Source: Squalus acanthias
Taxonomy: Eukaryota
DNA length: 64,000 nucleotides
Direction: 5' to 3'
NCBI GenBank assembly: GCA_030390025.1
Contig: CM059432.1
Coordinates: 87,980,001-88,044,000, forward strand
Under the pieces are notes generated by a model that was not told the origin of the DNA, searched no databases, and saw only the letters and a program-made list of their open reading frames with translations. The translations under genes were made by a program, and so were the position numbers. This document shows positions 1 through 48,225 of this stretch, piece by piece (position 1 is the stretch's first letter; each line of letters starts with the position of its first letter).

Positions 1-3000
1 TTTTCTTTTCCGAGTGCTTCTATGAGATGCAACCCTTGTGGCTTCAGCAGAGGTAGAGGCAGGCTGCTCACTTCCCTGCTGCGACTGGTTAGACCCTTTT
101 GGCGGACGTCCTCTGGGTTTTGGAGCCTGTGATGGCCTCGCCCAAGTCTGCTCCTCTTGCGACTGTGCAGGGGCAGACTCGGCCATCGGGATCTGAGGAA
201 ACATGTGGGGCTCTGACTGAGGGGGAGGCAATAGGATAGAAGTGTGAGCGCTTTGAAAAGGGCCCCCACTTCCATGTCCCCTCTCACCATCATCTCTCTC
301 ATGGGCCACTCGCACTTCCCTGCTAGCAAGAAGCTGGAGAGCACCTTGCTGCACAGCAGTGGGGCGATGAACACCCAAGTCGATGTTTACATCCCTCCTA
401 GAGAGGAGGTCTATGAATGCCTGCCACAGATAGTATGTGCTCATGTGACTGACGCATTAGCTGCTCCATGCAGGTGGCCATCCTTTCCATGGAACAGCAC
501 ATCGTCGCCATCGCCTGCGAGATGGTGGTGCTCATGTTGGAGATGGACTCCTCCATTCTCTGAACATTTGCAGACATCATGGCTGCAAACGATGCCAGAG
601 CCTCATGCAATTGTTGCTGCCCCTCCAAGATCACCCTCTTTCTCGATGGCCCCCGAGGCTCAGCATCTGCATCCAGCTCAGCAAAGCTTGGAGCATCCTG
701 TGCCCTCCGGCGAGGAGTCTCCACTCCTGTCCCTGTCAACATCACCTGCTCTTGCTCACTTGTGAAGTGTGAGACACCAGGTAACAACTCTACTCTATCT
801 CGCACAGGACCCACCGAGGTGTGCGTATCTGCGCTGGTGCTGGGTGCCCTTGGGTCTGCTGCCGATGCACCCTCAGAGGCTGGAGATTCCTCTGAGGAGT
901 TGTCTTCCTCCTCCGGCTGGACAGTGTCCGGGGCGGGTGGGGGGAGGGGGGGTGGTGGTACTTGATGGACCTGTGGGAGAGTAATGAGATGATTTAGAAG
1001 TGTTATGTTAAGAATGGGTTACGTTACCATTATGCACATGATGAAAATTCACTGGCTGCTGACATCAGTCACCATATGAGTGACTGTTGTGCCATGTGAC
1101 TGTATGAGATGTGATTCTGTCACCATTTGTTGGGATATCCTCCTCTCTCCGTCTCCAACCGCCAGCAGCTCTGCAACTCCTGATATGTCCAGGGCCCCCT
1201 ACTCTGCTGGAGTCAGTTGCATGAATACTGGAGGGCCACTCCCGCACCTTCTGTGCTCTTTTCTCCTGCAAGGATGGAAAAAAGAGAAGTTTGAGTGACT
1301 GTGATGGAATGAGTGTAAGGAATGGATGGGTTACATCTGTAGAGGGTGACTATGAGGGAGTGGGGTGCCAATGCCAAATGGCCTCTTTCTGTGGTGTTAC
1401 TTGCTATGATTGCATTAGGATGAGGGTGAGTGTCAGGGGTGGTTAGTCATCGAGTCATAGAGCCATAGAGTCATAACGGCACAGAAGGAGGCCATTCGGC
1501 CCATTGAGTCTGTGCCGGCTCTCTGTACAGCAATCCAGTCAGTCCCATTACCCCGCTCTATCCCCGTAGCCCTGCAAGTTTATTTCCCTCAAGTGCCTAT
1601 CCAGTCTCCCCTTGAAAACATTGAGTGTCTCCGCTTCCATCACTTCCGTTGGCAGCGAATTCCAGGTCAGCACCACTTGTTGTGTAAAAAAGTTTTTCCT
1701 CACGTACCCCCTGTATCTCTTGCCCAAAACCTTAAATCTGTGTCCCCTAGTCCTTGTACCATCAACTACTGGGAACAGCCTTTCCCCGTCTAGCCTATCC
1801 AAACCCGTCATAATCTTGTACACCTCTATCACCCCTCAACCTCCTTTGCTTTAATGAAAACAAATCCAGCTTCTCCAACCTGTCCTTGTAGCTAAGATCC
1901 CGCATCCCCGGAACCATTCTGGTAAATCTCCTCTGCACCCTCTCAAGTGCCTTCACGTCCTTCCTAAAGTGTGGTGACCAGAACTGGATGCAATACTCCA
2001 GCTGTGGCCTAAACAGCGCTTTATAAAGGCTCAGCATAACTTCTCTACTTTTGTACTCAATACCTCTATTTATGAAGCCCAAGATCCCATATGCTTTGTT
2101 AACCATTCTCTCAATATGTCCTGCCACCTTCAGGGATCTATACACATTAACTCCCAGGTCCCTCTGTCCCTGCACACTCTTTAAAACTATGCCATTAAGT
2201 GTATATTGCCTCTCCCTGTTCCTTTAGCCAAAATGCATCACCTCACACTTCTCTGTATTAAATTCCATCTGTCACTTGTCTGCCCATTCTGCTAGCCTTT
2301 CTATGTCCTGTTGCAGTCGATTGGTATCATCATCACTGTTTGCCACACCCCCAAGTTTGGTGTTAACGGTAAATTTAGAAATTCTACTCTGTATTCCAAT
2401 ATCCAGGTCATTTATATATATATATCAAAAAACGTTAGTCAGATTGGGATGTGAGTATGTACATAGACAGAGAGGGATGGGTGGACGTGCAAGGTGGGTT
2501 GGTGTGAGGATTAAGCTTGGGAAGGCAGAGTGATGGGGATGTGTTGACAGGCACATCAGGATGAGGCTGAGTGTGGCCTTGCACTCACCTTTCCTGACCT
2601 CATGAGATCATTGTATTGTTTCCTGCACTGTATCCAGGTCCTACTGACCACATCCCTGCTGCTGACCTCCTCTGCAATCTCCAACCATGCCCTTTTGGTG
2701 TCTTTGGGAGGTCTCTTGCGCCTATCTGCAGGGAACAGGACCTTCCTGCGTGCTCTCACTGCCTCCACCAGGATGCATCACTGAATCTGGGTGCAGCCCT
2801 CTGCCTTTGAGTATCCAACATTTATAGTTTTGAACAGTAATGAGACGTTTCTATTTCACCTTGCACACTCCTCTAGCAACCTTCAAATGAGATGTGCGTA
2901 AGGCTGCTTTAAATATCGGCACTGGAAATTAGTCATCGATGACATCATCAGACCCGCTCCATTTAATTGGGCCGGGAAACACGCATGACTGCTTTAAGTG

Positions 3001-3100
3001 GGGCCATTAAGTTAAAGTCGCCCTGAGCAAAACATCGCATTCCCGACCTGCTACGTGGCCCGCACGCACCAGACCCGACTCCAAGGTAAAAATCCTAGCC
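1..3100 (-). mobile_element. PIF/Harbinger element (truncated by window start) with a degenerate 3-exon Myb/SANT gene on minus
   Basis: Exon-1 remnant 2821-2589 (APRFSD...SRTWIQCRKQYNDLMRSGK, donor GTGAGT); exon-2 remnant ~1268-1100 (QEKRAQKVRE); exon-3 remnant below ~975 homologous to 11525-12663; terminus AAAATCCTAGCC at 3089-3100. Confidence 0.8.
1450..2433 (-). mobile_element. CR1 LINE, 5'-truncated, inserted in intron 1 of the Harbinger Myb gene
   Basis: RT C-terminal peptides (LYKALFRPQLEYCIQFWSPHFRKDVKALERVQRRFTRM; TRGHRFKV); 8-bp tail repeats; TSD GTTAGTCA at 1442-1449 and 2434-2441. Confidence 0.92.
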
Positions 3101-3796
3101 TATAGATCTGACTTTAGCCCTGCCTGCCCAGTGAAAATGGAGCGGGTGAGTGGTTAAAATGGCGGTCACGCGCTTACCGCTGTGTTCCTGATGTGTTCTT
3201 GCCTGCCACCATTTTAACTGCTAGATTTTCAGCAGTGCCGGGGCCACCCACTGCAGGTAGTCGGGGGCCTCATTAATATTTAAATATCGGGGTCTGATGA
3301 TGTAATTCGGAACTCGATGCGATCTTAACTGCCGATCGTGTCAGTGGCCCCCAATGCTAGAACCGCCAGTGAAAACTACCAACAGGAGTGCTCCTTCACC
3401 TGCCGCTAAATCCATAGCCTGCTTCTGAGTCACTATATCGAATCAGCTTGGATACTAGATTTACAGAACAGTATACTGCGGATAGGAGTGGTATTATATT
3501 GATAGCAAAAACATACATCAAATCACTGTACAATGGATAGGAGATCAGCTTCAATTGTTACAAGTTAAAAATGTAAGAAGCAAAAGCCAACTCTAGCTCA
3601 AATATATGGCAATAATATGTAAAGGTTTTAAAATCAAGCATTGTAGCTTATACAATAAAGAAAAACACCCTTTGATATAGAAAGTAGCACATGTAACACA
3701 GCAACACTCAAAACCTGAACCCTTGCCTTTCAGACTTACAAATATTCCTATTTGTGAAACCCAAACTCTGTCACCAGTAACAGATTATATAAATGT

Positions 3797-4981
3797 CAAG
3801 CAAGGCTGTGTCATCGCACCGACGCTCTTCTCGATCTTCCTTGTGGCAATGCTCTATCTCACCCTCAGTAAGCTCCCCGCTGGAGTGGAGCTAATTTACA
3901 GAACAAACGGGAAACTGTTCAACCTCCGTCGCCTCAGTCCAGATCCAAGGTCGTCCCTTCCTCTGTCGTCGAATTACAGTATGCAGACGACGCTTGCGTC
4001 TGCGCACACTCGGAGGTTGAACCCCAAACCATCATTAACACCTTCACCGAAGCGTACGAGAGCATGGGCCTTACACTAAACATCAGTCAGACAAAGGTCC
4101 TCTACCAACCTACCCCCGCCACACAGTACTGCCCCCCGATTATCAAAATCCATGACGAGGCCGTGGACAACGTGGACCACTTTCCATACCTCGGGAGCCT
4201 ACTGTCAACAAGGGTAGACGTCGATGACGAAGTCCAACACCGCCTTCAGTGTGCCAGTGCAGCCTTCGGTCGCCTGAGGAAGAGAGTGTTTGAAGACCAG
4301 GACCTCAAACCCGGCACCAAGCTCATGGTCTACAGAGCAGTAGTAATACCCGCCCTCCTGTATGCCTCAGAGACATGGACCATGTACAGCAGGCACCTCA
4401 AAGCACTGGAGAGGTACCACCAACGCTGCGTCCGCAAGATCCAGCAAATCCATTGGCAGGATAGGCGCACCAACGTCAGTGTTCTCGCTCAGGCCAACAT
4501 CCCCAGCATCGAAGCTTTGACCACGCTCGCTCAGCTCCGATGGACGGGTCACATCGTCCGCATGCCCGATATGAGACTTCCAAAACAAGCGCTCTACTTG
4601 GAGCTCCGACACGGCAAGAGAGCCCCAGGTGGGCAGAAGAAATGCTTCAAGGACACCCTCAAAGCCTCCTTGAAAAAGTGCAACATCTCCACCGACACCT
4701 GGGAATCCCTGGCCCAAGACCGTACAAAGTGGAGGAGAAGCACCCGGGAAGGCGCCGAATACCTCAAGTCTCTTCGCCGGGAGCAAGTGGAAGCCAAGCG
4801 CAAACAGCGGAAGGAGCGCACGTCAACCCAAGCACCCCACCCACCCGCCCCTTCAACCACCATCTGCCCCACCTGTGACAGAGACTGTAGGTCCCGCATT
4901 GGACTCATCAGTCACCTGAGAACTCATTTTTAATGTGGAAGCAAGTCATCCTCGGTTCCGAGGGACTGCCTAAGAAGAAGG
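3797..4981 (+). mobile_element. RTE-clade LINE, 5'-truncated (RT C-terminus plus C2H2 finger, one frameshift)
   Basis: VKQGCVIAPTLFSIF, QYADD, VDHFPYLGS, LRWTGHIVRM, CPTCDRDCRSRIGLISHLRTH; very short 3' UTR ending (AAG)n; TSD ATATAAATGT at 3787-3796 and 4982-4991. Confidence 0.9.
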
Positions 4982-12920: not shown

Positions 12921-14132
12921 CTATATAAATCTGGCCAGGAACAGTGCATCCCTTGCATCACGGGCAGCCATGTGCTCGCGTGCTGCCGCTGCTGCTGGTA
13001 GATACGCCGCCGCTCGGTCCTCCTCCTCATCTGAGGAGGCTATGAACTGAGCCACTTGCTCATCAGGAAGCTGCAAGCCACGACGCTGTGCCATGTTGTG
13101 CAGTGCACAGCAGACCACAACCATTCTGGAGACCCTGGCTGCTGAATACTGCAGGGCTCCACCTGATCTGTCAAGGCATCGGAATCACATCTTCAGCAAG
13201 CCAATGGTTTGCTTGATGATGGACTTGGTCGAAATGTGGCTGGTGTTGTAGCGCTCCTCAGCCTCATTAGCTGGCCTCCTGATCGGCGTCATTAGCCACT
13301 TTTTCAGGGGGTAGCCCTTGTCACCAAGGAGCCATCCGTTAACTTGGTTTGGCGGATTGAAGAGCGGAGGAACACTAGAGTTCTGCAGGATGAACGAGTC
13401 ATGGCAACTACCACAGAACTTGGCGCAAACATGCAAAATCTCCTTCTTGTGGTTACACACCAACTGTACGTTGAGGGAGTGGAAGCACTTGCAGTTGACA
13501 AAGATAGCTGGGTTGTGATGGGGTGCCCTAAGAGCCACATGTGTGCAGTCTATGACGCCCTGCACCATTGGCAAGCCTGCCATATTTGCAAAGCCAACTG
13601 AATGCGCGGCTATACTTGCTTGATCCCTTGAGAAGTGGATGTAATTATGCACCTTTGCGAAAAGGGCATCGGTAACCTGCGTGATGCAACTGTGGGCGGC
13701 CGACTGGAAGATGCCGCTGACGTCTGCTGATGATCCCTGGAAGGAGCCTGAGGCAAAAGAGTTGAGTGCGGTGGTGACTTTGACAGTCACTGGTAAGGGG
13801 TGTCCACCTGTTCCTCTGGGCACCAGGTCTTGCTGCAGCAGTGCGCAGATGACTCCGACAACCTCTCGCGAAAGTCTCAGCCTTCTTTGGCACTGCTGCT
13901 CACTCATGTTGAGGTAGCTCATCCTCTGTCTGTAAACCCCGAGAGGGGGGTATCTCCTGCGGCGATGTGCTTCCATGCGCTGGCGCCTTCTGCCCTGTGC
14001 AGCATCAGGTGGGTGAGCAGGAGGTTGGGGCTCCTGCTGCTGTTGCTGCTGAGCTGCCTGGTTCTACTGCTGCCGTGGCTGCTCCTCATCCGAATCTGAG
14101 GTCCGTGATGAAAGGAAATAAATGGTTCCCAT
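12921..14132 (-). pseudogene. HARBI1-like DDE transposase with two in-frame nonsense codons
   Basis: Single frame from ATG 14132 to TAG 12921 with stops at 14064-14066 and 13185-13187; motifs [33 protein letters not shown]; the usual IE(R/Q)T glutamate reads K ([10 protein letters not shown]). Confidence 0.9.
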
Positions 14133-15904
14133 GCTGCTGGCAGATACCTCCATTGGGGAAGTGCTCAGTCCAAGCGGGGTGAGGGTCTTCCAAGGAGGTC
14201 CCACAGTTGAGAGATAGAAGCTGCAGCACCTCTGACTTCGGTAGGCCTGATAGAAGTGCTGAAAGACCTGTGGAACAAAGGTTCTGCCACCTGCAACTGC
14301 TCCCTGATGAAAGGTCCGTTTTAATGGTGGAGCTGCAGCTGTGAGGAGGCCACCCACTTGTCAACCCGTCAGATTAGCTGGCGTGGTTTAGGAGGGTCGT
14401 GCAACATGCACAAAATGTGGCAAAATAACAAAGGTCTGGCAAAATAGGATTATAGAGGCCCTTAACGACTATTTAAGGGTCTTAACTACCTCTCCCGACT
14501 GGTGGAGGCGGGACCGAATCGCACCCATGAAACCCGCCTTCGGCAAAATTGCGCGGAGGCGGGTTGGAGGTGGGTTCCGAACCCGCCCTCACTTTTTGCG
14601 ATTTTGTCAACTGTCCCGCCTCCAAACCCGCCTCCTCGGGGCTGGGAAAATCGCCCCCCATGTGACAGACTTTTCCACATCTATAGTCAAGTATACATGC
14701 ATGCATAAGCATTGGAAGATAATAATTTGAGGGAGAGATTTTAATACATGGTGAGAAGTGTTAGGTCACACAGGAAGTACCTGTACTGCCAAAACATCTA
14801 CAACTAGCTGAATTAAGGCTGAGGTTATCAGATGCATCATCATGCATAATCACACAATTACCTCCTTTATCTCTTGGTGTACTACTTCATTGCAGTCGAT
14901 GCGACAAGTTCGTAAACTAATGAAGCCATGGTGCAATGAATTGAAATTTCCTGGGAGAATTTCAATACAGAACAGAGGCAGCAATAAGGGGGAAACTTTT
15001 GTACAATACTTAGGGCAACAGTATATTTGTATAATAATGCACAAAAAAGGCTTTCCATTGATAAATGCACAATGTAATCTTCATATTTTTGCATAAAACA
15101 AGTAGGAAACATGCACCTATATTTACTATATCCATTATTAAATAGTAGAGCAAAGGTCAATCTTTATCTTACATTTATATATTTGCCATGTTTAAGCATT
15201 GCTAACACTTTTTCTAAGTAACTAATATATAGAAATGTATTTTAATATACATGACAATGCAGTCTCCTTGGCATTTGCCCATTTTTATAAATGTCATCAT
15301 ATGATACTTGATAATGATTCACCCCCCAGTTGCTAGTATTGCTACCTTCTTAAATTTCTTTCCAAAACAATATGATCTCAATATAAATTACTGGTACTGT
15401 TGAAATTACTAACGGCCTTAAATAGTGAAGAGGTCTAGATTCTTCAAGTTTTGAGAGTTCATTTGTGAAATTCCAGTAGGAGCCTGGACTGTAACAATAA
15501 ATGACTGAGCTCACCAGCTGCTTCAAGCAAATGTGAAATTATTCTCGGTGGAGAATGGTTGTTTCTGGACACAAATCCATTGGCTGCCGCCTCTACTAGA
15601 ATGTCTGGAATTGAAACCGTCTTGTCACATCTGGCAAGAAGAATGAAAGTGTCAATTAGATTGATACAAACAGAATCCTAGAAGAAATGAACACGAGGCT
15701 TAAGTTATAAAAAATGTTCTGCGAGAATATGGCGTTGATGTAGCATTCCCACTATAAATAGTACATGCCACTGCATCACTTCTTTCACCAATGATTATAT
15801 TGCATTACTCAGATTTATATACTGTTTTATTATGTTGAAGCATCTCAAAGCTTCTCTTTCACACAATTAATTACTTTTAGGGTGCATTGATAGAACTACT
15901 TTTT

Positions 15905-17973
15905 TTAAATTATTAATTCCTGGGATGTGGGCGACGCTGGCAAGGCCAGGATTTATTGCCCATCCCTAATGAGGTCAGGAGCCGAGTGGTCATGGTGGAA
16001 TCCAAACTGGGCATCAGTGAGCAGGTTATTGGTGAATAAATGCCGCTTGATAGCACTGTCGACGGCACCTTCCATCACTTTGCTGATGATTGAGAGTAGA
16101 CTGATGGGGCAGTCATTGGCCGGGTTGGATTTGTCCTGCTTTTTCTGGACAGGACAAACCTGGGCAATTTTCCACATTGTTGGGTAGATGCCAGTGTCAT
16201 AGTTGTATTGGAACAGCTTGGCTAGAGGCACGGCTAGTTCTGGAGCCCAGGTCTTCAGCACGACAGCCGGGATGTTGTCGGGGCCCATAGCCTTTGCTGT
16301 ATCCAAAGTGCTCAGCCGTTTCTTGATATCATGTGGAGTGAATCAAATTGGCTGAAGACTGGCTTCTGTGATGGTGGGGACCTCAGGAGCAGAACAAGAT
16401 GGATCATCCACTCGGCACTTCTGGCTGAAGATGGTTGCAAACGCTTCAGCCTTGTCTTTTGCACTCGCGTGCTGGGCTCCGCCATCATTGAGGATGGGGA
16501 TGTTCATGGAGCCTCCTCCTCCTGGTTGTTGTTTGATTGTCCACCACCATTCATGACTGGATGTGGCAGGACTGCAGAGCTTTGATCTGATCCGTTGGTT
16601 GTGGGATCGCTTAGCTCTGCCTATAGCAAGCTGCTTCTGCTGTTCAGCATGTATGCAGTCCTGTGTTGCAGCTTCCCCAGGTTGGCACCTCATTTTTAAG
16701 TACACCTGGTGGTGCTCCTGGCATGTTCTTCTACACTCCCTATTGAACCAGGGTTGGTCCCCTGGCTTGCTGGTAATGGTAGGGTGAGGGATATACCGAG
16801 CCATGAGGTTACAGATTGTGGTGGAATACAATTCTGCTGCTGCTGATGGCCCACAGCGCCTCATGGATGCCCAGTTTTGAGCTGCTAGATCTGTTCTTAG
16901 TCTATCCCATTTAGCACGGTGGTCGTGCCACACAACACAATGGAGGGTGTCCTCAGTGTGAAAACGGAACTTCATCTCCACAAGGACTGTGCGGTGGTCA
17001 CTCCTACCAATGCTGTCATGGACAGATGCATCTGCAACAGGGAGATTGGTGAGGACGAAGTCAAGTGGGTTTTTCCCTCGTGTTGGTTCTCTCACCACCT
17101 GCCACAGGCCCAGTCTGGCAACTATATCCTTCAGCACTCGGCCAGCTCAGTCAGTAGTGGTGTTACCAAACCACTCTTGGTGATGGAACATTGATGTCCC
17201 CCACCCAGAGTACATTCTGTGCCCTTGCTACCCTCAGTGCTTCTTCCAAGTGGTGTTCAACATGGAGGAGTACTGATTCATCAGCTGAGGGAGGGCGGTA
17301 GGTGGTAATCAGCAGGAGATTTCCTTGCCCATGTTTGACCTGAAGCCATGTGACTTCATGGGGTCTGGAGTCAATGTTGCGGACTCCCAGGGCCACTCCC
17401 TCCTGACTGTATACCACTGTGCTGCCTCCTCTGGTGGGTCTGGGACATTGACTGAAAGGTATGATTCTGTATGTATGACTATGTCAGGCTGTTGCTTGTC
17501 CAGTCTGTGGGACAGCTCTCCCAATTTTGGCACAAGTCTCCAGATGTTGGTGAGGAGCACTTTGCAGGGTCGATTGGGCTGGGTGTGCCTTTGTCGTGTC
17601 CGATGCCGAGATCGATGCCGGGCGGTCTATCCAGTTTTATGCTTATTATTGTTTTCTGACTGAGTGGCTTGCTAGGCCATTTCAGAGGGCAGTTAAGAGT
17701 CAACCACATTGCTGTGAGTCTGGAGTCATGTATAGGCCAGACCAGAGCAGCAGATTGCCTTCCCTAAATGGGACATGAGTGAACCAAATGGGTTTTTATG
17801 ACAATCCGGTACTTTCATGGTCACCATTACTAGCTTTTTATTCCAAATTTATTTAATTAACTGAATTTAAATGCACCAGCTGCCGAGGTGGGATTTGAAC
17901 TCACATCTCCGGATCATTAGTCCAGGCCTCTGGATTACTAGTCCAGTAAAAATAACACAATGCTACCATGCCC
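15905..17973 (-). mobile_element. CR1/L2-group LINE with tRNA-like 5' head, APE endonuclease and partial RT; internally deleted
   Basis: EN: LLTNIWRLVPKLGEL..PDIVIHTESYL, WVGDIN, EPTRGKNPLDFVL. RT start: KAMGPDNIP, PISLLSIISKVME, QFGF. 3' end matches 29505-29560; head at 17973-17880. Confidence 0.85.
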
Positions 17974-17979
17974 GCTATG

Positions 17980-18335
17980 CACTGAATGCAGTGAATGTTG
18001 TTATATAAACAATGCAGCAGCCATTCTGCAACAGCAATATCCTTCAAATAGCAATGAGATGAATGACCTCCAGTTAATCTGTTTTTAATGGTATTTGGTT
18101 GAGTGAAGAACTTTGGCCAGAACACTGGGAGAACTTCTCCTCTTCTGAAATAGTACCCTGGAATCTTTAATGTGCAACTGGCCAGAGAGACAAGACCTTA
18201 GTTTACTGTCTCATCTGAAGGACTTCAGTTCCAACAGTGCAGCACTCTCTCAATGGTGCAGTGACCTGCCAGCCTAGACTATGAGCTTAACCTCTGACCT
18301 AGAATTGAAAGTGCGACCAATTCACCAAAGCTGAT
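17980..18335 (-). mobile_element. Old SacSINE1/DeuSINE-type SINE; its 3' remainder probably lies at ~15810-15895
   Basis: Degenerate colinear match to 60961-61410 (GTCTCATCTGAAGGAC...CCAACAGTGCAGCACTC). Confidence 0.7.
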
Positions 18336-18611
18336 TTACAATATACCAGAGTATCATAAAAATATATTTTAATTGTAAGTAGAACTGTGCCTAACTCAAA
18401 GGTCAATGCTGCTGCATTACTGTGTAATTGTTCTCTTGTATAATCCATTTCAACTGTGCAGCTTGTTTTAAGTGCACAAATTTCAAGTGCTTTTTATAAT
18501 ATGGACATCTGAATGAGTTTGTGCAGGCTGACAATACTTGAGCACTTGGACTGTTGCCAATGCTGAAATTATACAAAAGAATGTTTAAATATATTTAATA
18601 TTAATAGGTTA

Positions 18612-18848
18612 TTCCCCTCCAAGTCACACACTATCCTGACTTTGAAATATATCATCGTTTCTTCATCGTCGCTGGGTCAAAATCCTGGAACTCCCTCCCT
18701 AACAGCACTGTGGGAGTACCTTCACCACACGGACTGCAGCGGTTCAAGAAGGTGGCTCACCACCACCTTTTCAAGGGCAATTAGGGATGGGTAATAAATG
18801 CTGGCCTTGCCAGCGACGCCCACATCCCACGAATGAATTTAAAAAAAA
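18612..18848 (+). mobile_element. 3' fragment of the same LINE family as 15905-17973 and 29495-30985
   Basis: Reverse complement of 29505-29740 (TTCAAGAAGGTGGCTCACCACCACC...GCCAGCGACGCCCACATCCC). Confidence 0.85.
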
Positions 18849-20432: not shown

Positions 20433-20618
20433 ATTGTGTTTGTGTTGAACTTGGAACAACTAGGAGACATGAAGTCTGCTTTCAACCAGCTGAGGTGATT
20501 TAAGAATTGAATTGAAGATCTTCGTAAGAATGACATCAAATAGATACATCTGTTATAACCGTTTTTTATGATAAGTTTTGAACACCTAAAGGTAGAGACA
20601 CAAGTCTGCAAGCTAACA

Positions 20619-21052
20619 CGGTGGCATAGTGGTTAGCACTGGTGCCCCACAGCGCCAGGGACCCGGGTTCGAATCCGGCCTCGGGTGACTGTCTGTGTGG
20701 AGTTTGCACATTTTCCCCGTGTCTGCGTGGGTTTCCTCCGGGTGCTCTGGTTTCCTCCCACAGTCCAAAAATGTGCGGGTTAGGTTGATTTGGCTATGAT
20801 AAATTGACCCTTAGTGTTAGGGGGGATTAAATATGTGGGGTTACGGGGATAGGATGGGATATGTTAGGGGGAATTAAATACGTGGGGTTACGGGGATAGG
20901 GTGGGATATGTGTCGGTGCAGGCTCGATGGGGATTCTGTGTGGGAAAGCAGGGACAGGGTACTGGATTTGGATGATCAGCCATGATCGTTTTGAATGGTG
21001 GAGCAGGCTCGACGGGCCGAATGGCCTACTCCTGCTCCTAGTTTCTATGTTT
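20619..21052 (+). mobile_element. tRNA-derived V-SINE (HE1-like) with CR1-derived tail
   Basis: A box TGGCATAGTGG 20622-20632; B box GGTTCGAATCC 20666-20676; V-domain GTGGAGTTTGCA...GTGGGTTTCCTCCGGGTGCTC; CR1 tail GGGCCGAATGGCCTACTCCTGCTCC; TSD CTAACA. Confidence 0.9.
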
Positions 21053-24454: not shown

Positions 24455-27400
24455 GGGGTGAAATTGGGCTCAGTAGCGCCAGTTTTTTGGGTGCTATGGG
24501 TCCCCTTAAGGTTCCAAAATGCTACCCGCAGCATGCGTGCACACTTATGACACAAAGTGTGCCCAATGCCATATTGGTAAAGGGGTTAGCGCACACCTAA
24601 CGTCCGCTGGAAGTATGCAGAGCAGGCAGATCATGACGTCAATCAATGTGCAATGCTGATTTGACGCCACACAGCCATTTTGGAGCTCCACGCTCTAGCC
24701 TACACCCTCTCTTAACCTCCCACAGCTGAACACACATTCAATGGCATGAAGGATCCCCCACCAACACTATTTAAAGGGATCATCAACTTCTTACAGGTTA
24801 GTTGCTGGATTATTTCTTCTGGCTTTTGCTGCAATCTATACATTTTGGGTGCTTTTCTATACTTGTTAAAAGTTTCAGTAATCTACAGGGAGTGGTCTGG
24901 CTGGTGCTGAAGTACTTTTTAGGTGACTTGCGCACAAACCAGTTGCTTCCAGACATGGGTGACCTAGTAGGGCTTCCTCTTGGCATTGAGCATGTTGGGA
25001 GAATGAGCAGAGGTCATACAGAGCAGGACAAGCTGCTAGAAAGGGGAGGAGGGGGAGAAGGGCTCTCAGCAGGAGGCCATATCCGCAGAGGGTCTTTAGG
25101 AAACAGATCTGTTGGAGAACAGATTGCAGGAGTGCTATGACACCCTGGAAGCTCCTTTGCAAACTGGTATCCAGAGCCATGATGGCAGCAGTCTGAGCTT
25201 CCATGGCAACAAGCTGAAATTGCATGACAGCAGTCTGAGATTCCACTGCAGCACTCAGACATTGGGTGGCTGCTGCTTGTGCTGCAATGAAAGCTGAGAC
25301 ATCGGCCATCAGACGATGTATCATGGTTGGCTCCACAGGTGTGTTGATGGAGGTGGCCACCCATTCCATGTTGGAAAGGATGGGCTCCAAGTTTTGTGCA
25401 AAGTCCTGTGCCAAGTTGGCGCCGGACTCCTCAATGCTCCTTGACATTGAACGCAGGGTTTCTGGCAGGCTTTCCAGTGCACCAAGCATTGAGGTATGTA
25501 TACCCATCAGCCTTCTTCTGTAGTCTGACACCACAAAGTCATCATCTGACTCCTCTGCAGCAAAATTAGTGTGTGACCTCGCCCTCTGGCGAGCTGGCAC
25601 CTGCGCTGTCCTTTCCCCCTGCCCTGGCTGCAGCGCACTTTTGCCTGGTGTCTCACCACGTGCAGATCCCACCTCTATCCTATCCTCTAAACTACGTTCA
25701 GTGTCAGTATCTGAGCTGGAGGCTGCGACTGTGCAATTGAATGACGGTGTGTCTTCACTTTCACTGTCATCTTGCTCTTCCTCCACTGCCTGGGCAGGTA
25801 GCAGTTCTTGGGTATCTGAAATGAAAAAGGGAAAAGGGTAGGGTTGTGGTGACGGGGGAGTAGAAAGTAAGAAGTGCATGCTCAAACCATCGGCAGCTTC
25901 TCAGTCAGAACAGACTGTGGGATGAGGGAGAAGTGGGATGAGAGAAGGAGGATTAGGTATGTGGATACCCTCATCTTCAATGGCTTCAGCCCTGCCATTG
26001 GCCACGGCCTCAGCAATAGCCCTTCCCATAATGGCCAGCACCGTTTTTTCCATGGGGGTTAGAACATGCAGGTGTGCCTCTCCCCCTCTGGTTAGTTCCT
26101 GCTACCTTTGTCTGTGCGCCACCTTCTCCTACAAGAGAGAGGGAAGAGTGTCAGTGAGTGTCGTGCAATCTGTTTGGATGATGTGGCTTTCATAGTTGAA
26201 TAGCTGCCAGTGTGTGCAAGCTGTGAGATGTGGGTTTGAGGCTTGCAATAGTGCTAAGTGTGTGAGGGTGAGGTGAAGCATATGAATGTTAGGTATCAGT
26301 TCTGATTGATAGAGATTGTTGGTAGGTGAGTGATGGGGTGTGGTGAATTGAGCAGTGGCTGAGGCTAGAGGTGCAGTTGGTAGGATATGGCATTTGAAGA
26401 TGCATTCACTGACCTTGACCACATGTGTGAGATCATTAAACTTCTTTCGGCACTGCATCCAGGTCCTTGGGGCTATACTCCTGGCATTGACCTCCGCCAC
26501 TATCTGTTCCCACTGCCTTTTCATCATATGTCTGGAGGGTCTCCTGTCCCCCTGAGGATACAGGAAATCTCTCCTCCTTTCCACCTCCTCCACCAAGACC
26601 TCCAGTGCAGTGTCCAAAAACCTGGGGGCCTGCTCTTTCCCATGGCCAGCCATTGATCTCTCTTTCCCAAGTCAGATTCAGTTGCAGAACGACTCCCAGC
26701 ACCTGCTGCAGCCACAATGTACATTCCCTTTAAGTAGTGCAAGCTAGTTTTAAGAAGTGCAGCAACAACAACAACTTGTATTTATATAGCGCCTTTAACG
26801 TAGTAAAACATCCCAAGCCGCTTCACAGGAGTGTTATAAGACAAAAAAAATTGACACCAAGCCACATAAGAAATTAGGGCAGATGACCAAAAGCTTGGTC
26901 AAAGAGGTAGGTTTTAAGGAATGTCTTAAAGGAGGAAAGAGAGGTAGAGAGGCGGAGAGGTTTAGGGAGGGAATTCCAGAGCTTAGGGCCTAGGCAACAG
27001 AAGGCACAGCCACCAATGGTTGAGCGATTATAATCAGGGATGTGCAAGAGGGCAGAATTAGAGGAGCGCAGATATCTCGGGGGCTTGTGGAGCTGAAGGA
27101 GATTACAAAGATAGGGAGGGGCAAGACCATGGAGGGATTTAAAAACAAAGATGACAATTTTGAAATCAAGGCATTGCTTAACCGGGAGCCAATGTAGGTC
27201 AGCGAGCACAGGGGTGATGGGTGAACGGGACTTGGTGCAAGTTAGGACACAGGCAGCCGAGTTTTGGATGACCTCAAGTTTACGTAGGGTAGAATGTGGG
27301 AGGCCAGCCAGGAGTGTGTTGGAATAGTGAATTCTAGAGGTAACAAAGGCATGGATGAGGGTTTCAGGCTGAGGCAGGGGCGGAGACAGGCAATGTTATG

Positions 27401-29160: not shown

Positions 29161-29494
29161 ATGTTTATAAAAGGTTTTAGGGTTCAAATTAATGTTGCCT
29201 GCTAATCTTTTCTTGTAACCTCTGTTTCAAATCCTTCCCATACTTTCCATAATCTTCCTAGTTATTAACTGAATCTTGCCCCTGATATTTGTCATAAGCC
29301 TCCTTTTTCTGTTTTTTTTAAACTTTGGATGCTCTGCCTTTTCCCTTCAAAGGAATATGCCTAGTTGATACCTGAACTATCTCTTCCCTGAATGCCTTCC
29401 ATTGCTTCATTACTGCTTTACACTGAAATTGCCTTTTCCAATCTACCTGTGCTGAGTCCCTTCTTAAATCACTTCAATTAGCTCTTTCCCAGTT

Positions 29495-30985
29495 TTTTTA
29501 AATTTGTTTATGGGATGTGGGCGTCGCTGGCAAGGCCAGCATTTATTGCCCATCCCTAATTGCCCTTGAGAAGGTGGTGGCGAGCTGCCTTCTTGAACCG
29601 CTGCAGTCCGGGTGGTGAAGGTGCTCCCACAGTGCTGTTAGGGAGGGAGTTCCAGGATTTTGACCCAGCAACGATGAAGTATCAGCGATATATTTCCAAG
29701 TCAGGATGGCGTGTGACTTGGAGGGGAACTTGGAGGTGGTGGTGTTCCCATGTGCCTGCTGCCCTTATCCTTTTAGGTGGAAGAGGTCGCGGGTTTTGGA
29801 CGTGCTGCCGAAGAAGCCTTGGCGAGTTGCTGCAGTGCATCTTGAAGATGGTACACACTGCAGCCACAGTACGCCAGTGGTGGAGGGAGTGAATGTTTAA
29901 GGTGGTGGATCGGGTGCCAATCAAGCGGGCTGCTTTGTCCTGGATGGTGTCGAGCTTCTTGAGTGTTGTTGGAGCTGCACTCATCCAGGCAAGTGGAGAG
30001 TATTCCATCACACTCCTTACTTGTGCCTTGTAGATGGTGGCAAGGCTTTGGGGAGTCAGGAGGTGAGACACTCGCCGCAGAATACCTAGCCTCTGACCAG
30101 CTCTTGTTGCCAAAGTTTTTATGTGGCTGGTCCAGTTAAGTTTCTGGTGAATGGTGACCCCCAGGATGTTGATGGTGGGGGATTCGGCGATGGTAATGCC
30201 ATTGAATGTCAAGAGGCGGTGGTAAAACTCTCGCTTGTTGGAGATAGTCATTGCCTGGCACTTCTGTGGCGCGAATGTTACCTGCCACGTATCAGCCCAA
30301 GCCTGAACATCGTCCAGGTCTTGTTGCATGCGGGCATGGACTGCTTCATTATCTGAGGAGTTGTGAATGGCACTGAACACTGTGCAGTCATCAGCGAACA
30401 TCCCCATTTCTGACCTTACGTTGGAGGGAAGGTCATTGATGAAGCAGCTGAAGATGGTTGGGCCTAGGACACTGCCCTGAGGAACTCCTGCAGCGATGTC
30501 CTGGGGCTGTGGTGATTGACCTTCAACCACCACAACCATCTTCCTTTGTGCTAGCTATGACTCCAGCCAGTGCAGCGTTTTCCCCCCGATTCCCATTGAC
30601 TTCAGTTTTACTAGGGCTCCTTGATGCCACACTCGATCAAATGCTGCCTTGATGTCAAGGGCAGTCATTCTCACCTCACATCTGGAATTCAGCTCCTTTC
30701 TTCATTTTTGGACCAAGGCTGTAATGAGGTCGGGAGCCGAGTGTCTTGGCGGAACCCAAACTGGGCATCAGTGAGCAGGTTATTGGTGAGCAAGTGCCGC
30801 TTGATAGCACTGTCGACGACACCTTCCATCACTTTGCTGATGATTGAGAGTAGGCTGACGGGGCAGTAATTGGCCGGGTTGGATTTGTCCTGCTTTTTGT
30901 GGACAGGACATACCTGGGCAGTTTTCCACATTGTCGGATAGATGCCAGTGTTGCAGCTGTACTGGAACAGCTTGGCTAGAGGCCC
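29495..30985 (-). mobile_element. 5'-truncated LINE (RT and 3' end), same family as the tRNA-headed copy
   Basis: GVPQGSVLGPTIFSCFINDL, MFADDC, IYKAQVRSVMEYS; 30725-30980 nearly identical to 15970-16230. Confidence 0.9.
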
Positions 30986-33500
30986 CGATGAGCATTTTGC
31001 CTTCGATATTTTCTGGTCTCTTTCCATAATTACTTTAAACCGAATTATGTTGTGGTTACAGTTAGCTAGATAATCTCCTACTGTAACACACTCCACTTGC
31101 CCTACTTCATTTCCCAAAACCAGATCCAACATTGCTTCCTTCCTTGTTGGACTGGAGACATATTGATCAAGAAAGTTCTCCTGTACAAATATCAGAAATT
31201 CCTCTCCTTCCCCACCCTTAGCACTGTGTTTTTCCCAGCCTATATTAGGGTAATTAAAGTCTCCTAATATTACTACTCTGATTTTGTTACACGCCTTTGA
31301 AATTTGCCGACAAATTTGCTCATCTATCTCTTTCTCACTGTTTGGAGCTTTATAAAAACCTCGCAACAATGTAACAGCTCCCCCTCTGTTTCTCAACTCA
31401 AGCCAAACAGATTCAGTCCTAGAACCATCCTTTCTATTTAGAACTGTAACATCACCCTTAATCAATACTGTTACACCCCCTCATCATTTTCCTTCTCTAT
31501 CATTCCTGAATACTTGGGGCTTGGTTTTACGAACCTCGGTAGGTCCATGGTGGGCGATGTTGGTGGTGGGTCCCGACCCCGCTGCTGTCTCTATCCCGGC
31601 CTCTGAAATGAATTTACCGTGATTGGGCTTGTTAAGCCCGCTCAGCGAGTTTGCCTGCCGATTAGAGGAAGTGGGTCTGGTGACGTCATTTGATGACGTG
31701 TCATCAGCCGGTTTCCTTAAAGGGACCACGGCCAACTTTCTTTTGACATTTGTGCTGTCAGTGTTCTACAGCATTGAGGTGCTGCAAACACTGACAAGCA
31801 CTGCACAGAGGTGCAGGGCTGCACCTAGGCTCTCCCATGACTCCCTCCATATGTTTATGTAGGGAGTCACAGCACACAGGGAGGTCCTCTTCCCTTCCCA
31901 TGGGCGGAAGAGACCTCCCTAGGAGATCAACACAGCCTGGTTGCACATTGCAGAGGAGGGTACAAGCAAGGATGTGGTCAGGAGGATCTGGGTGCAGTGC
32001 TGCAAATGATTCAATAATCTCAGTAGATCATGAAATGTTAGTACAAAGCCATGCTCAACCTCATCCTGCTGTGCCTCTCATCACATCCCCATCACGCTGC
32101 CTTCCCTACCCTACTCCTGCACATCCTTACTTACCTTGCACCTCCACCCATCCCTCTCTATCTACATTATCACATCCCCATCTCACTAGCAACCCCTCAC
32201 ACTCACCCTCATCCTAGTGCAATCATACCAACTAACAACACACAAGGTTAGGCACTTGGGTGTTTTATGCAATGTTCATGTAAAGTTTCTGTTAACGTGG
32301 TGTCAAAAATTCAAACCTTTATTTTCAACACTTTGCATTCTTGGACTGATTTGTGTGCACCTTTGGAAGTGGATAAGTGAGTTGCAGTGAATAGTGAGAC
32401 ATAATGGTACCCCCCGCAATGGCGATGAGCGTGAAAGGAATGGCTTGGGCATTGTAGGGATGCTTTATGGTGCTGGTCTGGGGTGGTGCCAACCTGGCGC
32501 ATCATGTGGCAGCCAGGGTGTACAGCATCAAGTGAAGTAAATCTGGCCATGGAGATGCCATCTCTGACCTCCCGGGCAGCAATGTGGTTGGGTGCTGATG
32601 CCCTGTGTCCTGTGCAGCATCAGTTGATTGCGGAGAAGGTTGGTGTTGTTGCTGGTGCTGCTGGTGTGCCTGGTGCTGCTGGTGTGCCTGGTGATGTTGG
32701 TGTGCCTGGTGATGCTGGTGTTGAGGCTGATCGTGGTGGGATTCTGAGGACCAAGGTGAAAGAGTTTCAAGGGCACCCATGATGATGGGATAGATGGCAG
32801 GTGAAGTAGAGATGATAGAAGTGATCTGTCAATGTGGGAAAGGTAATGAGGTCAGACTGGATGGAGACTTCTGTAAAGACTTGCAACATCCTGAATCTGT
32901 AGTGGAAATACAGTTTAGAGAAGCTCGTGGTTAAGGGAACATTTCTCAATCAGCTGGGAGCTTCGACTTGACATTTGAAGCTGTCAACTCATCAGCTGAT
33001 TCAATGGCCACTGACCTCCCGCCTCAGCTTCACAGACGTGATCTAGGCACTGCAGGAAGCCGGTGGGCGACCTGACAAATGCAAAAATCTGGAAAAAAAA
33101 TTGATAAGTGGCTGTAAACAAGCCACTAATGATTTTAATTGCCTCCCCCGCCGCTGCGTATCGGGTCTGCTCAGCACTGACAGGCCCGACATTTGGTAAA
33201 GGTGCGTGGTGACGGGTTCACAGCGGGGTCCCGACCCACTGGGGGAAAAAAACACTTTCCCACCCGACCCACCACCGATCGCGCCTGCTGACCCCGTGCA
33301 AAATCCAGCCCTTGGTAACCAAGAAAATTAAGAACCTGTTCCTGGCCTTGTTTGAGCCATGTCTCTGTTAATGCAACCACGTCATAATCCCATTTGTACC
33401 TGCAGCTCACCAACTTTATGTGTTAAACTACAGACATTGATGTACATACAATTTAATACCTTCTTTGTCACTTTTGCTATTTTCCTCAATCTGGTCCCTC
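30986..33500 (-). mobile_element. CR1 endonuclease region (continuation of the fragmented CR1), split by a Harbinger derivative
   Basis: YDVVALTETWL near 33370; ESVWLELRN, VILGDFNYPNIGW, ENFLDQYVSSPTRKEAMLDLVL. Confidence 0.8.
31517..33311. mobile_element. Non-autonomous Harbinger deletion derivative
   Basis: TIRs GGGCTTGGTTTT / AAAATCCAGCCC; TSD TTG; Myb exon-1 remnant 31800-32040 (+); transposase N- and C-terminal remnants 32780-32530 (-) with an 18-bp His/Gln repeat. Confidence 0.82.
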
Positions 33501-35152: not shown

Positions 35153-35362
35153 ATATCTGCAATTGGGAGCCTGATTTAAATTTAACAGATGCCAGCCAGG
35201 TTTCCCAGGGGTCGGGAAAACCAGCAGCAAAATGGATATGGGAGCAGTTGGCTGGAAAAGATAAATGCTTTTTAGAGCACTGCTTGTGGGCCAGGAGGAG
35301 CAGGAGTGCTCCGCATGGCCCCTCAAGCAAATCTCCTACTGATCGCTGCCTCTCCTCGCAGC

Positions 35363-37560
35363 CACGATCGGCCGACGCCCCCCAAACCCCCGATCTCAAG
35401 TATTCTGCCTCACGATCCCCCCCCCCCCCCAACCCCCGATCTCAAGTATTCTGCCTCACGATCGGCCGAGCCCCCAAACCCCCGATCTCAAGTATTCTGC
35501 CTCATGATCGGCCCCTCCCCAAACCCCCGATCTCAAGTATTCTGCCTCACGATCGCACCCCCCCAAACCCCCGATCTCAAGTATTCTGCCTCACGATCGA
35601 CCCCTCCCCAAACCCCCGATCTCAAGTATTCTGCCTCACGATCGCACCCCCCCAAACCCCCGATCTCAAGTATTCTGCCTCACGATCGGCCGAGCCACCA
35701 AACCCCCGATCTCAAGCCGTCTGCCTCGTGATCGACCCCTCCCCAAACCCCCGATCTCAAGTATTCTGCCTCACGATCGCACCCCCCCAAACCCCCGATC
35801 TCAAGTATTCTGCCTCACGATCGGCCGAGCCACCAAACCCCCGATCTCAAGCCGTCTGCCTCGTGATCGGCCCCTCCCCAAACCCCCGATCTCAAGCCGT
35901 CTGCCTCACGATCGCCCCCCCAAACCCCCGATCTCAAGTATTCTGCCTCACGATCCCCCCCCCCCCCCAACCCCCGATCTCAAGTATTCTGCCTCACGAT
36001 CGGCCGAGCCCCCAAACCCCCGATCTCAAGTATTCTGCCTCATGATCGGCCCCTCCCCAAACCCCCGATCTCAAGTATTCTGCCTCACGATCGACCCCCC
36101 CCAAACCCCCGATCTCAAGTATTCTGCCTCGTGATTGGCCGACCCCCAAACCCCCGATCTCAAGTATTCTGCCTCGTGATCGGCCGACCCCCAAACCCCC
36201 GATCTCAAGCCGTCTGCCTCACGATCGCCCCCCCAAACCCCTGATCTCAAGTATTCTGCCTCACGATCGCCCCCCCCAAACCCCCGATCTCAAGTATTCT
36301 GCCTCATGATCGGCCCCCCCAAACCCCCGATCTCAAGTATTCTGCCTCACGATCGACCCCCCCCAAACCCCTGATCTCAAGTATTCTGCCTCGTGATCGG
36401 CCGACCCCCAAACCCCCGATCTCAAGTATTCTGCCTCACGATCGGCCGAGCCCCCAAACCCCCGATCTCAAGTATTCTGCCTCACGATCGACCCCTCCCC
36501 AAACCCCCGATCTCAAGTATTCTGCCACACGATCGCCCCCCCCAACCCCCGATCTCAAGTATTCTGCCTCACGATCGCCCCCCCCAAACCCCCGATCTCA
36601 AGTATTCTGCCTCATGATCGGCCCCCCCAAACCCCCGATCTCAAGTATTCTGCCTCACGATCGACCCCCCCCAAACCCCTGATCTCAAGTATTCTGCCTC
36701 ACGATCGACCCCCCCCAAACCCCTGATCTCAAGTATTCTGCCTCACGATCGCACCCCCCCAAACCCCCGATCTCAAGTATTCTGCCTCACGATCGGCCGA
36801 GCCCCCAAACCCCCGATCTCAAGCCGTCTGCCTCGTGATCGGCCCCTCCCCAAACCCCCGATCTCAAGTATTCTGCCTCACGATCGACCCCTCCCCAAAC
36901 CCCCGATCTCAAGTATTCTGCCTCATGATCGCCCCCCCCAAACCCCCGATCTCAAGTATTCTGCCTCACGATCGACCCCCCCAAACCCCTGATCTCAAGT
37001 ATTCTGCCTCATGATCGGCCCCTCCCCAAACCCCCGATCTCAAGTATTCTGCCTCACGATCGGCCCCCCCCAAACCCCCGATCTCAAGTATTCTGCCTCA
37101 CGATTGCGCCCCCCCCAAACCCCCGATCTCAAGTATTCTGCCTCATGATTGGCCCCTCCCCAAATCCCCGATCTCAAGTATTCTGCCTCATGATCGGCCC
37201 CCCCCAAACCCCCGATCTCAAGTATTCTGCCTCACGATCGGCCCCCCCCAAACCCCCGATCTCAAGTATTCTGCTCACGATCGCCCCCCCTCCCCAAACC
37301 CCTGATCTCAAGTATTCTGCCTCACGATCGACCCCTCCCCAAACCCTCGATCTCAAGTATTCTGCTCACGATCGCCCCCCCTCCCCAAACCCCTGATCTC
37401 AAGTATTCTGCCTCACGATCGACCCCCCCTGAAACCCCCGATCTCAAGTATTCTGCCTCATGATCGCCCCCCCAAACCCCCGATCTCAAGTATTCTGCCT
37501 CACGATCGCCCCCCCCCAACCCCCGATCTCAAGTATTCTGCCTCGCGATTGGCCGACCTC
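35363..37560. repeat. Minisatellite, ~45-bp unit, roughly 48-50 copies
   Basis: Core AAACCCCCGATCTCAAGTATTCTGCCTCACGATCG followed by a variable C-rich linker of about 7-11 nt. Confidence 0.97.
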
Positions 37561-38246
37561 CCACCCCCACCTTCAATTCCCGAACTTTCCCTCCCTCCCG
37601 ATTGCTGGTCACTGTCCCCAACGGTCCCAGACTGTGGCCTCCTACTGCTGGCTTTCCCGCCTGGCAGCGCCAGTCTATCAATCTGACCAGCTACCAGGCG
37701 GGAAACAAAATAAAAAATGATAATGAGGTCCTGCTGTTAAATTCAACAGGACCTTCACATCCTCAGGATTTCTGGGTATTCCCCTGTAACCGCGCTCCCA
37801 TGCTCCTTTCCCGCCTCCCCGTAAATATAGAGCCTAACTTAGGCCATCTAATTGGATACTAACTTAAATTATTTTAATACACATTTTAATAAATGGATAT
37901 AGTTCATTTTATTGATGCAAATAACTGCACTAGTGGTAGTTAAACATATTGAGGGGGGGGGGGGGGGGGGGCGGGGTTGGGGGGAGGAATCATGATACCG
38001 GTCACATTAGCCTGTGTTTTGGTGAGATAGAACTTCATGTGTTAGTTACACAGTACAAAAATGCTAAGCCACTGCAATTAGACACAGCATAGGCGATTCT
38101 TGCCAAAAAAATGTATAAAAGTGTAAAAGTATTGTTGAAATCTGAAAGGGACTGCAGAAAATATATTAGCTTGAAAAGGGCTGCAAAAGCTAAGTTACAA
38201 TACAATAGGACATGAAACCCAACAGCACAGGACCGAAGGACTCTAT

Positions 38247-43934: not shown

Positions 43935-44342
43935 GAATTAATTCTCGGGATGTGGGCATCACTGGCAAGGATGACATTTGTTGCCCATCCTTCGTTGCCC
44001 TGAGAAGATAGTAGGAGGACACCTTCTTGAACGACTGGGATTTTTTGATACAACTGAGTGGTTTGCTACACCACTTCAGAAGGCAGTTAAGAGTCAACTG
44101 GAGTCACCTATAGGCCACAGCGGGTAAGGATGGCAGGTTTCCTTCCCTAAAGGACATTAGTGAACCAGTTAGACTTTTACAACAATCCAACAACTTCATG
44201 GTCACTTTTACTGATACTAGTTTTTTATTTCCAGGTTTAAAAAAAAAATGAATTCAATTTCTCAAGCTGCCATAGGTGGAATTATGAACTCACTCTCTCT
44301 GGGTTACTAGTCTAGTAACATAACCACAACACTACCATCCCC
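43935..44342 (-). mobile_element. tRNA-headed SINE sharing 5' head, body and 3' tail with the LINE at 15905-17973
   Basis: 44342-44050 aligns with 17973-17655; 44035-43940 aligns with the LINE 3' end (29505-29600). Confidence 0.8.
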
Positions 44343-47328: not shown

Positions 47329-47886
47329 GTAAGTGTTGCCCGAACCGTTCGCCAGTGACCGAAATGCGGTGTATTAGTTAAAAAGTTCTCGTTAATTGTG
47401 TGACTGAGATTTCTGCTTCCCCTGACCAAGCACTGGAACCGTGTCAACTGAGCGGCGGGCTGTCATGGCACTGGCTGCCCCTCAGGCTGGACACCAGCAG
47501 CTTACTTGGAATAGATTCCCCTCCTGAACTGTATATGCGGAACATGTCTCAAATAGATGGATCCTAATTTCATTTGCCCGCTTTCTTGTTAAAACAAAAC
47601 ACGATTCAAGTGCCTGTAGCTCGGGCAGACGATAAATTATCTGCTCATAGCTTTTGAATGAATGGACGGCTACATTTACTGGCGTCCGGGGCTGTCTCCA
47701 TGACAACGCAAGCGGCACACTTTCCTCCCAACACAGGAATATTTGCTTTTGTTATTTAGCAAATTAATACATCGAGTCCTTTAACCTGCAAATAGTGCAC
47801 TCTTCATCATTGCAGCTTCAGAGTTGGCCGGGATTTTGAGGGAAGTGTCTTGGAGTTAATCGCAGAGTGTCCTGAGGCCATTCATC

Positions 47887-48225
47887 ATGAAGTGTTCAGA
47901 GTTGGTGACTGCTTTGCTATTAGTTGCACAAACAGTTGTTGCGATGATGAGCCCCAATGTTACTTCCGAATTGGATGCAATATTGGTAAGATTTATGGAA
48001 GACGATGAAGAACTCTTGACAACTGAAACAGTCACTAAAATGAGCAGCAATTTTACTGATGGTTTGGATTCAATCATGGCAAGATATATGGATCAAAATG
48101 AACAACAGTGGACATCCAGAAGAGCGAAAAGATCTATCACAGATAGTGATAGAGAAGTAATCTTGGATCTTCACAATAAACTGAGAGGTCAGGTGTCACC
48201 AAGTGCCTCTAATATGGAACATATG
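47887..48225 (+). CDS. CRISPLD1: CRISPLD1-like, first coding exon (signal peptide, propeptide, start of CAP domain)
   Basis: MKC start, hydrophobic signal peptide, furin-type [26 protein letters not shown], phase-0 donor ATG|GTAAGT. Closer by recall to CRISPLD1 than CRISPLD2; orthology needs phylogeny or synteny. Confidence 0.88.

Follow-up and report, generated by a model that had tools for sequence, protein, structure and literature searches.

The divide between SINEs and LINEs is one of promoter type, with RNA polymerase III (Pol III) heads on non-coding SINEs and RNA polymerase II (Pol II) UTRs on coding LINEs, and Kojima 2018 (PMC5786205) states that SINEs are unable to code for proteins. 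The described system closest to the element analyzed here is Zenon, a LINE reported in elasmobranchs, coelacanth and hagfish by Stuart et al. 2026 (PMC13343379), in every case without ORF1 and with a poly-A tail. The supplement of that paper holds 10 vertebrate Zenon consensuses, built through flank extension, of which the elasmobranch ones are reported as absent from repeat repositories; the name CR1-Zenon also appears in a whale shark paper. In Lepidoptera, an ORF1-less Zenon of the CR1 group likewise gives rise, time and again, to internally deleted short forms joined at microhomologies, the SIDE Persaeus (Wang et al. 2019, PMC6740152). Persaeus, however, is described there without tRNA homology or a Pol III promoter, whereas the shark LINE and its short forms are both tRNA-headed.

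Other known elements share single traits with this system. In Bov-tA and SINE2-1_ACar (Kojima 2015, PMC4494074; Kojima 2018, PMC5786205), a tRNA head is followed by LINE 5' and LINE 3' portions, as in the short form that we found at 44342-43937, but the published descriptions place the head on the non-autonomous form only, with RTE and Vingi as partners, while in the shark the coding LINE is headed too. The shark SINEs HE1 (V-SINE) and SacSINE1 (DeuSINE), both kinds of which occur in our window (20616-21045 and 61410-60972, respectively), also have tRNA heads, yet their heads and bodies are unlike those of Zenon and only the tail is common with the partner LINE. Cassandra TRIMs carry a Pol III (5S rRNA) promoter in the LTRs of a retrotransposon that is not a SINE, in this respect like the headed Zenon, but are described as non-autonomous, non-coding LTR elements. 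Our search of the openly accessible literature found no autonomous LINE with a tRNA head.

Identity and architecture of the element

The window, that is, the whole 64-kb stretch of DNA analyzed, is presumably shark-like DNA with CR1, L2, RTE and Harbinger-like fragments. The element on its minus strand, spanning 17973..15900, represents the elasmobranch Zenon LINE (CR1 group) in a decayed form with an internal deletion. Read from its 5' end, this copy shows a tRNA-like head, the UTR block of 220 nt, a short leader, the broken EN-RT ORF, a jump, a stem-loop tail and A7. We compared by eye the first 400 nt of each Zenon consensus in the PMC13343379 supplement and found that SquAca_Zenon-1 and the window copy agree at 131 of their first 146 nt, second hairpin included, and that the consensus is collinear with the copy through the UTR into the leader; the window element is therefore elasmobranch Zenon. 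It belongs to the same family as CarCar/HypSab/RhiTyp/ScyCan/SquAca_Zenon (~90% over the first 146 nt by eye) and, like them, has a single EN-RT ORF, no ORF1, a poly-A tail and a length of ~3.3 kb, with no sequence difference setting it apart in the part compared. Since the published family as a whole is without ORF1, an ORF1-less element is ordinary here. The initial annotation had named it a candidate for an undescribed system; the family, the consensus and the ORF1 loss are already published, and what stands is the tRNA head, of which the main text of PMC13343379 makes no mention. The terms tRNA, promoter and polymerase have 0 occurrences in that main text, which also gives no description of the head, the short forms or the out-of-frame AUG considered below. 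New here are the Zenon identity of the window element and the cross-species conservation of its head.

The tRNA-derived head (17879..17973), supported by the SquAca_Zenon-1 match and a read-contig consensus, starts at 17973 and has an A-box-like 11-mer at 17965 with two mismatches to the A-box consensus; the box is mutated in the window copy but intact in the reads and in the published consensuses. The head also contains a D-arm-like stem, the anticodon-type arm CTGGA-CTAGTAA-TCCAG (17946-17930), a second arm or hairpin 21 nt beyond the first (17925-17909) and the B box (17900-17891, minus strand), so that the A-box-like start and the arm with its degenerate tandem copy, as first noticed, were both located. 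It is followed by the 5' UTR body (17659..17878), an AT-rich linker and then a block nearly invariant in the compared consensuses of five species, which is common to the short forms and whose folding in the window copy is not out of the ordinary (z=+0.62). Linker and leader occupy 17564..17658, the linker being ~14 nt shorter than in the consensus.

The broken single ORF (15968..17563) comprises an APE endonuclease, a linker and the start of the RT, the single-ORF organization of Zenon. EN-RT relatives aligned by tblastn at 17620-15968, with an E value of 8e-81 for the relative P0001, which bears PF03372/PF14529/PF00078. Two frameshifts, one near 17435 and one near 17187, break the ORF together with stops; the frameshifted EN pieces have no Pfam match, and the RVT_1 start gives a weak profile match (E=0.016). 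The first EN strand (KVLLTNI) begins at 17563, ~410 nt from the 5' end of the element, in agreement with the ~400 bp initially estimated and with the claim that no space is left for an ORF1; the longest ATG ORF has 76 aa and no Pfam match, and there is no ORF1.

Reads and alignment place the junction of an internal deletion at a 4-nt microhomology (15967..15970; ATTA on the minus strand, TAAT on the plus strand), and the deletion, at first put at ~1.2 kb, measures 1162 nt. Read continuations past this point run into the RT (5232) or into the normal tail (4142+10413), and the deletion is private to the window copy, or rare. With it restored, the length is ~3.24 kb, plus small private deletions. 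The absent segment is present at 30722-29560 in a 5'-truncated copy with RT and tail (29493..30983, minus strand; RVT_1 E=3e-17), which is 92% identical to the 17973..15900 copy over a 262-nt overlap and does supply the missing RT, as had been suggested for 29495-30985. The 3' tail (15900..15970) is formed by a stem-loop and an A-run (15906-15900); for the homologous tail at 29570-29495 the folding z score is -2.75, and 2 of 200 shuffles do equally well. A short 3' fragment of the same LINE lies at 18608..18847 on the plus strand, and A-runs terminate all four window copies, which matches the poly-A tail, without a microsatellite, published for Zenon. At 30983, a canonical CR1 endonuclease fragment (30990-31480) adjoins the truncated Zenon RT in one open frame, a contact that probably reflects a nested insertion and not a chimera.

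An RT tree of 41 rows (36 of 120 matches and 5 window pieces, with no labelled Zenon among them) grouped the Zenon RT with unnamed EN-RT proteins, the nearest at 46-49%, in a clade supported at 100/99 and separate from the CR1 pieces of the window and from its short L2 piece, whose row was 31% filled. Canonical CR1 (HER1-type) or L2 membership was accordingly rejected, as the RT falls outside both in this tree. From the list of clades first considered (CR1/L2/Crack/Daphne/Kiri), the CR1 group is retained and the other four are dropped, the clade itself being Zenon.

Insertion site and other features of the window

Head and LINE jointly interrupt one older Deu-type SINE on the minus strand, as had been proposed: its 5' part (17984..18335) and 3' part (15807..15881) follow one another in a full copy at 61410-60972, where they meet at 61046, and the right half scores 42, the maximum of 300 shuffles being 33. 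The target-site duplication sought around 17973..15900 was not found in clean form; there are 29 extra nt, and the best repeat is 7/8, off the ends. The reference copy (60972-61410, minus strand) is a near-complete Deu-type SINE, which we take to be SacSINE1-like.

The window also contains a tRNA SINE of the conventional kind (20616-21045, plus strand), in which the A box and the B box are both perfect and whose tail is common to CR1 3' ends at 19763, 22805, 34666 and 1512 and whose body is presumably V-domain-like, of HE1 type. What we take to be remnants of Harbinger-like nuclease and Myb/SANT-like ORFs lie at 13185-14063 (minus), 26129-26671 (minus) and 53063-53485 (plus). A long C-rich minisatellite with many overlapping open frames extends over 35300-37700, and a probable host exon at 47860-48300 (plus strand) codes for a signal peptide together with the beginning of a CAP/CRISP-type domain, presumably CRISPLD-like.

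The tRNA-like head across the family

All 7 elasmobranch Zenon consensuses, which represent five species (white shark, whale shark, catshark, spiny dogfish with three, and one stingray), begin with the head, including the A box, the anticodon-type arm and the B box; among the hagfish and coelacanth consensuses, 0 of 3 have it within their first 400 nt. Six B-box 10-mers gave 6 occurrences in the first 400 nt of the consensus table (rows to 910), all in elasmobranch Zenon, and in the stingray a single base of the B box is different. Inspected by eye, the consensuses have their A box 6-11 nt from the 5' end, and it is intact though the adjoining head sequence varies. A Pol III start is expected at such a distance upstream of an A box. 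In the supplement, the top insertions are 3220-3322 nt long for five shark consensuses and 2870 nt for a sixth, and near-full copy counts reach 2313. The stem of the second hairpin (17909-17925, minus strand) is apparently kept through double-sided changes between the Squalus and Carcharodon consensuses; the hairpin is absent from the stingray consensus and from the 44342 copy, and some reads have a further 36-nt repeat.

Outside 15900-17975 there is almost no read depth, and at the 5' end of the head it drops from ~600 to ~9; the head has one and the same 5' end in 493 contigs, the consensus of their loose ends having an intact A box. The reads by themselves leave the continuity of head and EN unproven, because the loose ends at 17659 are mixed (agreement 0.5) and the head bins of run X24 are shallow (600-800 per direction vs 1500-4100 over EN), probably because the head has diverged in the species of that run; the uninformative runs X21 and X22 had 66 and 0 reads. 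Judged on the assembled sequences, head and EN-RT are one unit family-wide, and the suspicion that their junction is unique to this locus fails, since the two are joined in 7/7 elasmobranch consensuses and the 5' end is discrete in 493 contigs.

Taken alone, the window head is a weak tRNA: Rfam gives it 18.7 bits (E=1.9), ARAGORN at default thresholds calls no tRNA in it, and 0.7 pairs of A and B boxes are expected by chance per window. The tRNA assignment therefore rests on the family, whose consensuses preserve both boxes, a D-type stem that can pair and an arm of 5 bp closed by a loop of 7 nt, the acceptor stem being lost. On this family basis the element has the tRNA-related head with A and B boxes that defines a tRNA-derived SINE (SINE2), but the 'short, non-coding' part of that definition does not hold for a 3.3-kb EN-RT element and applies only to the short forms. 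Ribozyme-led LINEs (R2, RTE, Ingi) have an HDV-like ribozyme at their 5' end; in this element, a search of Rfam to E=10 matched no ribozyme of that or any other catalogued type.

The AGT/Thr anticodon initially read in the arm is doubtful. A pattern of arm and T-loop with the anticodon left free had 12 matches in viral contigs, all of them tRNA genes (5 Gln, 4 CUA, 1 Lys, 1 Pro, 1 His and no Thr), and the same pattern with the Thr anticodon loop had 0. The 5' (D-arm) part of the short-form head, which lies outside the pattern, resembles 2 of these 12 viral tRNAs more than shuffled sequences do, both among the 5 Gln (P<=0.002, uncorrected); for the head of the window copy the corresponding count is 0/12. 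The scaffold is thus more likely Gln-like, of Gln type rather than Thr. ARAGORN with relaxed thresholds reads the short form as tRNA-Thr (83.8) and arm-deleted heads as Asn (85.7), calls that we do not count because a similar threshold yields 9 mostly spurious calls across the window, and Rfam detects no tRNA in the short form (43937..44342). Four large viral contigs (L081, L084, L085 and L092) carry CUA-anticodon tRNAs on a Gln-like scaffold and are probably amber-recoding phages.

Short forms of the element

The SINE-like short form at 43937..44342 (minus strand) unites a single-arm head, the 5' UTR, part of the linker and the last ~105 nt of the LINE. The coding part is skipped in at least 2031 reads of run X24 (10 joint rows; 897 further rows), with breakpoints at 17659-62, 17681 and 17693 among the joints listed, and the copy at 44342 is a fourth form. 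These short forms would be SINEs born through loss of the middle of the LINE, and the variety of their breakpoints is consistent with a headed LINE having been deleted repeatedly; in the order published for the bipartite SINEs of RTE and Vingi (PMC5786205, PMC4494074), the head is acquired after the deletion. Read depth is 7100 in the UTR bin vs 1500-3000 in early EN, and short forms may outnumber full-length LINEs.

Translation start and Pol III terminators

All five EN-frame ATGs between 17975 and 17400 of the window copy are closed by stops before EN, which bears out the earlier observation that no in-frame ATG directly precedes the endonuclease. The family AUG position corresponds to 17640-17638 (ATA in the window copy) and is out of frame with the EN valine codon, which follows 80 nt later. 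By eye, a leader ATG is present in 6/7 elasmobranch consensuses; that of the stingray is likewise 80 nt ahead of the EN valine codon and out of frame, a spacing equal to that of the ATA at 17640, and in SquAca_Zenon-2 a deletion brings the AUG into frame. No canonical slippery heptamer was seen, and a by-eye tally of changes among the consensuses favoured no frame of the leader as under selection. The longest ORF2 is reported in PMC13343379 as 739-747 aa despite 99% EN coverage, compared with 934-976 aa in relatives, which fits ORF callers beginning at the first Met after EN. Synthesis of the EN-RT would begin through a -1 shift or from a codon other than AUG.

Sense-strand runs of T4 or more number four in the Zenon copies of the window (17952, 16964, 18768 and 30227), and the first three are private changes: those at 17952 and 18768 are absent from the consensus and the reads, and ~89% of reads differ at 16963. 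Inspection by eye of the 7 elasmobranch consensuses over their first 400 nt showed no T4. In the coding part, 2 runs were seen vs 2.6 expected over 2145 nt, a difference that is not significant, as even zero would give P=0.04. The CR1 copies of the window have T4 runs in common. A low count is not unique to Zenon, because the 3' part of an RTE-type LINE at 3600-4933 (plus strand), with a 353-aa open frame, is also T4-poor in its ORF. Among 80 loci of relatives, all 43 long ORFs hold 4-49 T4 runs, relatives being mostly more T-rich. At these 80 metagenome loci no tRNA lies upstream of an ORF and neither head nor tail is matched at the DNA level, a weak negative because the relatives are distant (mostly 26-45%) and many are incomplete; no close copies occur in the prokaryote or viral contigs. 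T4 avoidance in Zenon is only suggestive. Of the 'autonomous SINE-headed retroelement' of the initial annotation, the joining of head and EN-RT holds, and we put Pol III synthesis of its mRNA at about even odds.

Discussion

We favour, with a probability of about 0.6, the reading that this is an elasmobranch Zenon of ~3.3 kb, dead at this locus, with a captured tRNA head, whose Pol III RNA would be both mRNA and template and whose deletions would yield SINEs. An ancestral Zenon may have gained the tRNA-type head by template switching, after which the internal type-2 promoter would direct Pol III to make a 3.3-kb RNA, the promoter travelling within each new copy. This RNA would act as mRNA and, through its 3' stem-loop and A tail, as template for target-primed reverse transcription. 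As no in-frame AUG precedes EN, its protein would have to be initiated either at the conserved AUG, 80 nt upstream, with a -1 shift, or at some codon other than AUG, and repeated internal deletions of the headed LINE would create ready-made tRNA SINEs. The most far-reaching form of the idea is an autonomous coding Pol III retrotransposon since the shark-ray ancestor, with an uncapped 3.3-kb RNA that is free of oligo-U terminators and yields EN-RT though it lacks an in-frame AUG, possibly through a -1 shift from the conserved AUG, and that gives birth to SINEs by loss of its middle; we would put it at about an even bet. Translation would meet a real obstacle, in that the RNAs made by Pol III are as a rule short and have no cap.

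In a possible, though rather unlikely, alternative, the LINE has the head as a fixed part but its coding RNA comes from Pol II, which would use an internal promoter within the conserved 5' UTR block or be aided by the B box as a TFIIIC-bound helper, and Pol III drives the short forms only. A capped RNA explains translation better, T4 avoidance is only suggestive, the ~220-nt UTR block is by eye more conserved between species than the head, and headless Zenons are described in moths, hagfish and coelacanth, with a promoter presumed to lie in their UTR. Against this, full-length copies need transcription from the first base of the head, the expected Pol III start, A and B boxes are retained in the consensuses of five species, and Pol II cis-elements and Pol III are in conflict according to Kojima 2018 (PMC5786205). 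We consider it less probable that the SINE came first, as a tRNA head with a bipartite Zenon derivative, and that the headed LINE arose later by recombination in the shared UTR, a history that fits either polymerase. It has the same order as the published RTE/Vingi SINE model (PMC5786205, PMC4494074) and is favoured by the excess depth in the UTR bin, as short forms may be commoner; yet at least four short-form breakpoints come about more easily by repeated deletion of a headed LINE, as Persaeus is described to have done from Zenon, and none of the 7 elasmobranch consensuses is a headless full-length Zenon.

It is improbable that the head persists chiefly for its RNA structure, for stability or as tRNA mimicry in AUG-independent initiation, with transcription by host read-through. 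The lack of an in-frame AUG and the stem of the second hairpin, maintained by eye through double-sided changes between the Squalus and Carcharodon consensuses, speak for this, but the consensuses have lost the acceptor stem and retained both boxes, and the sharp 5' end requires a start or a cleavage site, with no Rfam ribozyme there. Chance adjacency at the locus or a chimeric consensus, suggested by the lack of a clean TSD and by consensus building through flank extension, is effectively refuted by the identical head, UTR and junction in the genomic copy and the five species' consensuses, by the full-length insertions recorded in the supplement and by the single DeuSINE that head and LINE interrupt jointly.

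A high-copy LINE bearing a conserved tRNA promoter contradicts the rule that assigns promoter types to SINEs and LINEs. If the favoured reading of a Pol III-transcribed Zenon holds, deletion of a headed LINE would be a one-step birth of SINEs, in the opposite order to the published model. Headed Zenon lets one ask, in a natural setting, whether long transcripts made by Pol III can act as mRNA, and the consensuses of five species make this idea directly testable.
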